Positions 40,003-41,239 of a stretch of 64,000 nucleotides of DNA are shown here, piece after piece (position 1 is the stretch's first letter; every line of letters starts with the position of its first letter). The notes beneath the pieces are model-generated. The model was not told the DNA's origin. It saw only the letters and a list, made by a program, of their open reading frames with translations, and ran no database searches. A program made the translations under genes and the position numbers. This stretch comes from Escherichia phage WPEC2. The DNA is taken from the sequence record PV691511.1; one strand, written 5' to 3'.

Positions 40003-40271
40003 CAAGTTTTGAAAGTAACTTCGTTACCGCTTGGGAAGCTTGGGATGAAATGGGTGTTGGGGAACTTTATTTTTACAATGTAACACTACGTCCAGAGTAT
40101 GCTTACCTGGTACCAGAAGGAACAGTTCAAATTGGCATGTATCTGTCTTCTCAAGACGGTGTTGTTCAATTTGAGTTTTATTCAAACACAACGGACAACG
40201 AATTTACATATCGTGCATTTCATGTCAACATGTCTTTAGGAGAGGAGAAATTTTATGACGACCAAGTTTAA
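39981..40271 (+). CDS. hypothetical protein
   Basis: 96 aa; ATG with GAGGAGG SD. Confidence 0.55.
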   Translation: MAEFRSVTSFESNFVTAWEAWDEMGVGELYFYNVTLRPEYAYLVPEGTVQIGMYLSSQDGVVQFEFYSNTTDNEFTYRAFHVNMSLGEEKFYDDQV

Positions 40272-40452
40272 AACAGTAGAAGAAGCCGTAAAAGCAGCTT
40301 ATGAGGCTTTAGCGGAAGCAGAGCAGTTAGCAGATGAGACTGGTAAAGGTTTCCGTTTCTCCCCTGAATATGGGATGGGTGGCTATTATGATCCAGAAGA
40401 TGAAAATGAGAATACTGGAACAAATTGGCATCCATCTTCTTTAAGTTGTTAA
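40255..40452 (+). CDS. small protein, W-x-SS-x-C tail family member 1
   Basis: 65 aa; ATG with AGAGGAGAAA SD; ends ...TNWHPSSLSC. Confidence 0.5.
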   Translation: MTTKFKTVEEAVKAAYEALAEAEQLADETGKGFRFSPEYGMGGYYDPEDENENTGTNWHPSSLSC

Positions 40453-40463
40453 TAGGAGGTAAA

Positions 40464-40739
40464 GTGGGAATCGAAGATATCAAAGGTTATAAGGCGCATA
40501 CTGACGATAAGATTGGCAAGGTTAACGCTATTAAAGATGCAGAAGAGCGTTTAGGTTTAATCTTCAAAGCTTTAGAGGAAGAGTATTGTGAAGCATATCA
40601 TGGGTCTTTTGACGGCACAGAAAAAGAATTAGATCTTGCATACGAACGTATTGATCAAATCCGTTGTGCTATTAAACATTTAAAAGAAGCTAGTATGTGG
40701 GCTTGTCGTTCAGTTTTCCAACCAGAGGAGAAATACTAA
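40464..40739 (+). CDS. hypothetical protein (start refined to GTG)
   Basis: GTG at 40464 after AGGAGGTAAA SD; stop overlaps next start (TAATG). Confidence 0.45.
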   Translation: MGIEDIKGYKAHTDDKIGKVNAIKDAEERLGLIFKALEEEYCEAYHGSFDGTEKELDLAYERIDQIRCAIKHLKEASMWACRSVFQPEEKY

Positions 40740-40957
40740 TGAGTGATCGTAATGTTGAAGAATTAACTGAAAAAGCCCAAGCTATTATGGCTTTAGTGGA
40801 CGAACTTACAAAAGAAGCTGAAGATGCTGGTTTTGGTCTTAGTTTAGAAAATGACGCAATCTGTTTTGAAGATTGGCAATCCTCTTCTTGTTATGGTGAA
40901 GGTGATGATGGTTTCGTCGTTAATTCTCAAGGCGTTTGGCACAGTAGTAGCTGTTAA
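40739..40957 (+). CDS. small protein, W-x-SS-x-C tail family member 2
   Basis: ATG at 40739 after AGAGGAGAAATAC SD; ends ...QGVWHSSSC. Confidence 0.5.
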   Translation: MSDRNVEELTEKAQAIMALVDELTKEAEDAGFGLSLENDAICFEDWQSSSCYGEGDDGFVVNSQGVWHSSSC

Positions 40958-40966
40958 GGAGAGATT

Positions 40967-41239
40967 GTGGAGTCTGAAGGCGAACTGCTGATAAAAAAGA
41001 AAGTTAAAGAGATGGAACAAGCACAAAGAAAGTTTCGTAAGGAGATTGAAGAACTTTGTGAACAGTTTCAGGAACAAGCTTGGATAGGTGACTACGGTAA
41101 CGGAGAAACTTATTACCCTACAGGAACGCCAGCCGCAGATCACTATATTGATTTCATTTGTGAAGATTATGGTGTAGAGTTGGATGAAAATGGTTTAACC
41201 ACAAGAGGTGTTTGGATCTCTTCTTCCTCAATGTGTTAG
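40967..41239 (+). CDS. small protein, W-x-SS-x-C tail family member 3
   Basis: 90 aa; GTG start after GGAGAGA; ends ...RGVWISSSSMC. Confidence 0.5.
   Translation: MESEGELLIKKKVKEMEQAQRKFRKEIEELCEQFQEQAWIGDYGNGETYYPTGTPAADHYIDFICEDYGVELDENGLTTRGVWISSSSMC

Follow-up and report, generated by a model that had tools for sequence, protein, structure and literature searches.

A conserved C-terminal Ser-run/Cys tail in tandem small phage proteins encoded beside a predicted nucleotidyltransferase

In the 64,000-nucleotide stretch of Escherichia phage WPEC2 analysed here (sequence record PV691511.1; hereafter the window), three small genes at 40255-40452, 40739-40957 and 40967-41239 are paralogues arranged in tandem. 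Their products belong to a phage-only superfamily of small acidic proteins which end in a Trp, a run of Ser and a C-terminal Cys. This tail is the most conserved element of the family, and the family is coupled almost obligatorily, in tandem arrays, to a gene encoding a predicted nucleotidyltransferase, which in the window lies downstream at 41330-42271. Together the small proteins and this enzyme suggest an undescribed two-part phage module. We infer an interaction, a possible modification and a biological role, and give a probability of roughly 0.4 to the reading in which the nucleotidyltransferase is engaged by the tail, either as a site for docking or as an acceptor.

The three open reading frames (ORFs) are on the plus strand and each start is preceded by a Shine-Dalgarno-like sequence (GGAGAGGAG-ATG at 40255, GAGGAG-ATG at 40739 and AAGGAG-GTG at 40967). 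The first encodes a net acidic protein of 65 residues with a YGMG turn (40369-40380) and the ending ...TNWHPSSLSC, in which W58-HPSSLS-C65 occupies 40426-40449. The second protein (72 residues) ends in ...GVWHSSSC, a short form of the tail with the Cys at W+5 (W67-HSSS-C72, 40937-40954). The third (90 residues, GTG start) has YGNG at 41093-41104 and ends in ...GVWISSSSMC (W83-ISSSSM-C90, 41213-41236). These ORFs and their W-x-SS(S)-x-C endings had been noticed in a sequence-only reading of the window, and they are borne out by translation, by GenBank records of related phages in which the three genes are annotated as coding sequences (all genes in question being called 'hypothetical protein') and by a shared match to phrog_899, a family of unknown function (E = 1.2e-12, 1.4e-5 and 5.1e-14, in gene order). 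The alignments to the PHROG 899 profile all fall at its C-terminal end. Pairwise the proteins are 33-37% identical and agree throughout in the W, two S and the final C, and a six-frame scan of the whole 64-kb window found the tail on no other ORF longer than 41 residues. Since all three proteins match the same PHROG, the scan was negative elsewhere and homologues keep the tail, its occurrence is not due to chance. Scans of the three proteins with Pfam, NCBIfam and PADLOC gave nothing significant, and searches of the PDB with the family, by sequence and by profile, were empty.

Relatives numbered 126 in a word-indexed search and 511 clusters (50% identity, E <1e-3) in an exhaustive search with a hidden Markov model (HMM). 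Nearly all of them are 60-130 residues long, and the match reaches the very last residue. Homologues lacking the tail, which the sequence-only reading had named as evidence against its proposal, are not the rule: among those collected the terminal Cys is present in 250 of 259, mostly as G-W-x-S-S-S-x-x-C, and in 7 more it is penultimate, mostly with one residue added after the same tail. The spacing from Trp to Cys is 7 residues in 230 of the collected homologues and 5 residues in 13. We define the superfamily by a C-terminal Cys, a Trp 5 or 7 residues upstream of it and a Ser run at W+2 to W+4, and by a position upstream of a same-strand gene with the Pfam domains DUF7277 and DUF7275; all three window proteins have this tail and lie in this way upstream of the enzyme gene, which carries both domains. 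In an alignment of 95 diverse members four residues never vary: in the Y-G-x-G turn the G, and in the tail W, S and C. The family consensus can be written as a helix, AE-x-IADE-x-G-x-x-F-x-F, (A)YGMGG-x-Y-x-P, an acidic linker and G-W-x-S-S-S-x-x-C, and the tail consensus from 194 non-identical neighbours of the enzyme is GGW[VI]SSSxxC. The Gly/Asp/Tyr-rich segment that had been described before the tail is better seen as two elements, a beta-hairpin turn with the conserved sequence (A)YG(M)GG and, after it, the acidic linker. The family is strongly acidic (median net charge -8). Nearly every superfamily member has the tail, but just 79 of 195 retain the YGxG turn.

In many members the acidic linker contains additional W-[DE]-S-S-[DE] repeats. 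In protein 2 an internal motif, W46-QSSS-C51 (40874-40891), is followed immediately by YGEG (40892-40903), and both motifs are kept in homologues P0007, P0017, P0018, P0028, P0104 and P0118. The contiguity of the tail and hairpin-turn motifs in protein 2 and its orthologues suggests a duplication or permutation of a basic unit. When the tail was trimmed from 215 ORFs that bear it, 195 of them still fell into one single-linkage BLAST cluster, which argues for one diversifying superfamily and rules out unrelated proteins sharing only a portable tag.

The link with the enzyme was assessed in 80 viral loci retrieved by anchoring on its gene. The family HMM was positive in 68 of these loci, with 1-6 members that were always on the same strand and almost always no more than 2.5 kb upstream; the loci missed by the HMM still have upstream ORFs ending in W-x-SS-x-x-C, without the YGMGG turn. 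Same-strand ORFs bearing the tail were present within 3 kb in 33 of 35 enzyme clusters (70% identity). The tail pattern was found in 245 of 3011 nearby same-strand stop-to-stop ORFs (8.1%), as against 8 of 7067 distant ORFs (0.1%) and 0 of 4089 nearby ORFs on the opposite strand. The relation holds in the reverse direction, as all nine look-ups starting from diverse small proteins led to a downstream DUF7275 gene at a distance of 3 bp to 1.2 kb. The remaining neighbours (gp32, rIIB, clamp loader, RNA ligase and others) differed among all nine. In the T4-like phages Mosigvirus APCEc01 and Dhakavirus Bp7, tandem arrays of 3-4 paralogues lie between homologues of T4 e.6 and e.2 (placed from the Bp7 record), each array then being followed by a gene for a protein of about 318 residues homologous to the product of window gene 41330-42271. 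Orthologues of protein 3 occur in T4-like phages (P0022-P0027). In many other phages the small gene and the enzyme gene abut.

No other window gene tested was comparably linked to the enzyme (3-21 of the 80 loci). Homologues of Acb2 were found in 21 loci, of a NinI-like phosphatase in 15, of a DprA-like protein in 10 and of the other tested genes in 3-10; a Sir2 homologue was found in 7 related loci. The sequence-only reading had proposed that the conserved Cys after a Ser run could be a modification or metal site, both of which are hypothetical, or a recognition tag for a partner enzyme of the same gene island, naming a phosphatase and a sirtuin. The tight linkage to one enzyme in both directions supports the idea of a recognition tag circumstantially, but the partners named are not supported: neither phosphatase nor sirtuin is a conserved neighbour, their partnership was rejected, and the conserved partner is the DUF7277/DUF7275 protein. 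The DprA-like and Sir2 genes are confined to close relatives, which makes them unlikely partners of the small proteins.

The enzyme gene (41330-42271, plus strand) encodes 313 residues, with DUF7277 in the N-terminal part (E = 1.7e-13) and DUF7275 in the C-terminal part (E = 7.5e-76). A signature of the Pol-beta type (G5-S6, D26-L-D28, E70) is invariant in 55 homologues, and the motif was present in all 86 inspected. Its features are those of the Pol-beta superfamily, namely the motif hG[GS] followed by [DE]h[DE]h, a third carboxylate on the neighbouring strand, and an alpha-beta-alpha-beta-alpha-beta core. The structural model resembles MenT1, MenT3, MenT4, ANT(2'') and LnuA, enzymes that transfer a nucleoside monophosphate to hydroxyl groups, and nine nucleotidyltransferases were matched at Z of at least 8.9; on this modelling the protein is a predicted nucleotidyltransferase with an intact catalytic motif and a MenT/ANT-like fold. 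At the sequence level PDB sequence and profile searches returned no similarity to solved structures. A second invariant polar cluster lies in the helical DUF7275 part (H115, H123, H161, H183-D184, H187, E229-E230 and E237-R238), where R116 is nearly invariant.

The enzyme is present in 734 of 50,697 phage records, with hosts including Escherichia, Acinetobacter, Aeromonas, Pseudomonas, Vibrio, Gordonia and Streptomyces, and on just 3 contigs, all from metagenome-assembled genomes (MAGs), among one genome each of 185,579 prokaryotic species. Genes for RNA ligase, Pnk-like kinase, ligase-OB and metallophosphoesterase recur within 6 kb of DUF7275 genes, the RNA ligase in 4 of the 9 loci anchored on small proteins and in about 10 anchored on the enzyme. 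In unrelated phages RNA ligase (Rnl1- or Rnl2-type), Pnk-like kinase and metallophosphoesterase genes lie near DUF7275 at L098 7312-8205, L099 8083-9129, L088 2570-3619, L097 1830-2810 and L094 48-920 and 8497-8576. This proximity hints that the enzyme acts in an RNA/tRNA end-repair toolkit, and suggests ends of RNA or tRNA as its substrates in counter-defence.

Protein 1 was modelled with confidence by AlphaFold (predicted local distance difference test score, pLDDT, 91.9) as a single helix (residues 8-29) packed against a three-stranded sheet (33-38, 41-45 and 58-60). The YG turn lies in a hairpin and the Trp in the final strand, and the chain ends with a short turn. No relative of this model was found in the PDB. 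The coiled-coil N-termini that had been read from the sequence are not supported by the model, in which the N-terminus is better described as a single amphipathic helix of 22 residues.

In the mechanism that we favour, the invariant tail would be the element engaged by the enzyme encoded at 41330-42271. The Trp would anchor the tail on the small domain, and the Ser run and terminal Cys, with its thiol and free carboxylate, would enter the enzyme active site or the metal/His cluster, in the way that MenT-type enzymes take in the 3' end of a tRNA. Once there the tail might accept a nucleotidyl or phosphoryl group on a Ser hydroxyl or might be an unvarying handle for docking, while the variable and fast-evolving remainder of each paralogue would confer on every copy its own target. 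The occurrence of 1-6 diverged tandem paralogues per enzyme fits several clients per enzyme better than a single inhibitor. Nucleotidyltransferases that modify hydroxyls provide a precedent, as do MenT-type enzymes, which according to PMC11375011 can move phosphate to Ser/Thr once a small helical partner binds. A more specific version would be a hitherto unrecognised phage system of post-translational tagging, in which the MenT-like enzyme would nucleotidylate or phosphorylate the Ser-run/Cys tails of a diversifying array of small acidic effectors and so produce protein-nucleotide conjugates or mimics of tRNA 3' ends. These would inhibit, or serve as decoys for, host defences that target RNA or signal through nucleotides; this version is in our judgement unlikely.

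Several points weigh against engagement of the tail by the enzyme. In the window a terminator and a promoter-like site part the small genes from the enzyme gene, so that the two are not strictly co-transcribed there. The intrinsic terminator (41248-41273, plus strand) closes the small-gene operon with a 7-bp GC-rich stem (41248-41265) and a T run, and is also annotated in NC_048196; the sigma-70-like promoter (41271-41299, plus strand; TTGACA, 17 nucleotides, TAAACT) is a consensus match only. The last small gene stops at 41239 and the enzyme gene begins at 41330. Moreover, distant DUF7275 homologues (<37% identity) in Streptomyces, Mycobacterium, Vibrio K408 and DSS3_VP1 phages have no tail-bearing neighbours, which indicates that the enzyme can work without the small proteins. 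The position of the Trp in a beta-strand of the model implies that part of the motif is structural. Given that 195 of 215 tail-bearing ORFs cluster without it, the tail may also be no more than the most conserved part of a single domain and not a transferable tag. In addition, a role as Ser acceptor would by itself leave the obligatory last Cys unaccounted for.

Among the other explanations, it is conceivable though rather doubtful that the small proteins have no physical link to the enzyme and counter host defences on their own, for instance by acting as a sponge or by inhibiting a host nuclease or tRNA-targeting toxin. The YGMGG hairpin and the Ser-run/Cys tail would then form a ligand or metal pocket, or the acidic protein would mimic a nucleic acid, and the adjacency to the enzyme would reflect a shared counter-defence theme. 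Gly-rich turns and Ser hydroxyls are typical anion-binding elements, and anti-defence proteins are typically small, acidic and diversified in tandem. An Acb2 sponge gene stands inside the window array and in 21 of 80 related loci, from which the region appears to behave as a counter-defence island, and genes for Acb1, RNA ligase and Pnk-like proteins recur nearby. The distant phages in which the enzyme exists without the small proteins also fit such autonomy. Nevertheless, thematic clustering rarely yields adjacency in 33 of 35 clusters and 9 of 9 look-ups with order and strand fixed and every other neighbour changing, and the turn that would line the pocket is kept in only 79 of 195 members as against the nearly universal tail.

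A role as antitoxin-like regulators, which would restrain or time a potentially toxic MenT/AbiEii-like phage nucleotidyltransferase, is improbable, although the closest folds to the enzyme are the MenT toxins, the small gene or genes lie upstream of the enzyme as in the menA-menT gene order, and the proteins are acidic and start with a long helix. The acidic body could in that case mimic the tRNA substrate, and the C-terminal Cys with its carboxylate could chelate the catalytic metal, thiol and carboxylate being a classic metal-chelating pair; or the N-terminal helix could trigger an inhibitory auto-phosphorylation, as MenA1 does for MenT1. Auto-phosphorylation of MenT1 induced by the N-terminal helix of MenA1 is described in PMC11375011. 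An antitoxin is difficult to reconcile with as many as six diverged paralogues per enzyme and with separate transcription units for the small genes and the enzyme in the window, and the small proteins neither resemble MenA or AbiEi in sequence nor match any PADLOC or Pfam model. Moreover, the module resides in large virulent phages, which would have little use for an addiction module, and it is essentially absent from bacterial chromosomes; an origin as a bacterial toxin-antitoxin (TA) module was rejected on that ground (3 MAG contigs only among 185,579 genomes). It is very improbable indeed that the tail undergoes some other chemistry, whether Ser dehydration with Cys decarboxylation to aminovinyl-cysteine (AviCys) as in ribosomally synthesised and post-translationally modified peptides (RiPPs), lipidation, a Trp-Cys or Tyr-Cys crosslink, a degron, an inter-subunit disulfide or a metal site, carried out by host enzymes or by the phosphatase or sirtuin. 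Ser residues followed by a C-terminal Cys do resemble AviCys-forming peptides, and an invariant Tyr (in YG) and an invariant Cys are both present. However, no dehydratase, HFCD (LanD-type) decarboxylase or radical-SAM gene was found among the annotated or Pfam-scanned neighbours in the window and nine unrelated contigs, the phosphatase and Sir2 are not conserved neighbours, and the proteins are predicted folded domains of 60-200 residues and not leader-plus-core peptides. Analogies from general knowledge with RiPP/AviCys formation, with sulfur carriers (C-terminal GG) and with prenylation (CaaX) were dropped, the required enzymes or motifs being absent.

Of the systems already described, MenA-MenT and AbiEi-AbiEii (DUF1814 nucleotidyltransferases) are similar in having a gene for a small helical protein upstream of the enzyme gene, and MenT enzymes, as stated in PMC11375011, use hydroxyl acceptors (tRNA 3' ends) in addition to the Ser/Thr phosphorylated upon binding of a small partner. 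The enzyme described here falls outside the DUF1814/AbiEii sequence family (no match to Pfam AbiEii, and an empty PDB profile search) and carries in addition a helical C-terminal part, DUF7275, which contains a His/Asp cluster. MenAT and AbiE are two-gene modules of bacterial chromosomes or plasmids in which one cognate antitoxin neutralises a toxic enzyme, whereas this one occurs in 734 phage records and 3 MAG contigs with 1-6 acidic paralogues, and its small proteins differ from MenA and AbiEi in having an alpha+beta fold with a Cys tail. To our knowledge no Cys tail of this kind exists in MenA or AbiEi.

The working analogy for the favoured mechanism, by inference only, is provided by MNT-HEPN (type VII TA, Tyr AMPylation) and GlnD-PII (Tyr uridylylation), in which a nucleotidyltransferase of the Pol-beta fold nucleotidylates a side-chain hydroxyl of the small protein paired with it. 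The differences are that no HEPN, PII, HD or ACT domain was detected here by Pfam scan, that the HEPN partner with an Rx4-6H motif which defines HEPN-MNT type VII TA is lacking, and that the acceptor would be a C-terminal Ser run and not a loop Tyr. RlaP, an RNA-ligase-associated Pol-beta nucleotidyltransferase of jumbo phages described in PMC7824862, is likewise a phage nucleotidyltransferase repeatedly found near RNA ligase, kinase and phosphoesterase genes, and the similar neighbourhood makes a role in RNA-end repair plausible for the present enzyme. Pfam RlaP gives no match to this enzyme at E up to 0.1, though, and the accessible part of PMC7824862 mentions no tail-bearing small-protein partner for RlaP.

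Finally, the Acb2/Tad1 sponges are small phage proteins of the same gene cluster, an Acb2 homologue being interleaved with the three genes. There is no similarity to them in sequence or fold. The three proteins have no Pfam match, and only ORF 40464-40739 matches the hairpin domain; moreover, the sponges have neither a conserved C-terminal Cys tail nor a linked nucleotidyltransferase.

Each partner is listed only as a protein family without a known function, and the pairing of the two seems not to have been described before. Full-text searches of the literature library used returned no paper on DUF7275, DUF7277, phrog_899 or PHA02102, and broader searches for phage nucleotidyltransferases with C-terminal-Cys small proteins found nothing on the module. 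Its mechanism is hypothetical. The enzyme-bearing module spans more than 700 sequenced phages, T4-like phages included. If the tail is the handle of the enzyme on an array of small proteins, a new protein-modification or protein-adaptor system would exist in phage groups that are among the most thoroughly studied (T4-like, phAPEC8-like and jumbo phages). A function would be gained for one large PHROG and two DUFs of Pfam, and a simple sequence rule (a C-terminal W-x-SSS-x-x-C beside DUF7275) would find hundreds of fast-evolving candidate counter-defence proteins. Even without any modification, so strict a pairing of genes means that a few clones would be enough for a direct test of what the enzyme and the small proteins do.

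Between 38000 and 44000 the window matches phAPEC8-like Escherichia myoviruses (Phapecoctavirus, Stephanstirmvirinae), WPEC1 and Schickermooser among them, at 99-100% identity. Upstream of the array the gene at 39981-40271 (phrog_4991) shares 17 nucleotides with the start of small gene 1, an overlap that suggests translational coupling. The Acb2/Tad1-hairpin gene (anti-CBASS 'sponge' family; 40464-40739, plus strand; Pfam PF24729, E = 2e-16; phrog_717), also a coding sequence in phage Schickermooser, is interleaved between small genes 1 and 2 as a neighbour and not a member of the family. GenBank places the start of this ORF at 40464; a longer reading, starting with TTG at 40425, runs over the codons for the tail of small protein 1. 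The island also contains a DprA-like gene (38919-39500, plus strand) and a Sir2-family gene (44526-45341, plus strand), both named from the GenBank record of a related phage; the DprA Pfam match of the former is at E = 0.068 only.

The distant DUF7275 homologues of the Streptomyces, Mycobacterium and Vibrio phages (L094 3854-4896, L095 3839-4920, L096 3878-5039) are shorter (248-261 residues). They are followed by a conserved ORF of about 100-120 residues which ends in ...KMITVYE in L094 and L096 and differently in L095, and which may be an alternative partner.

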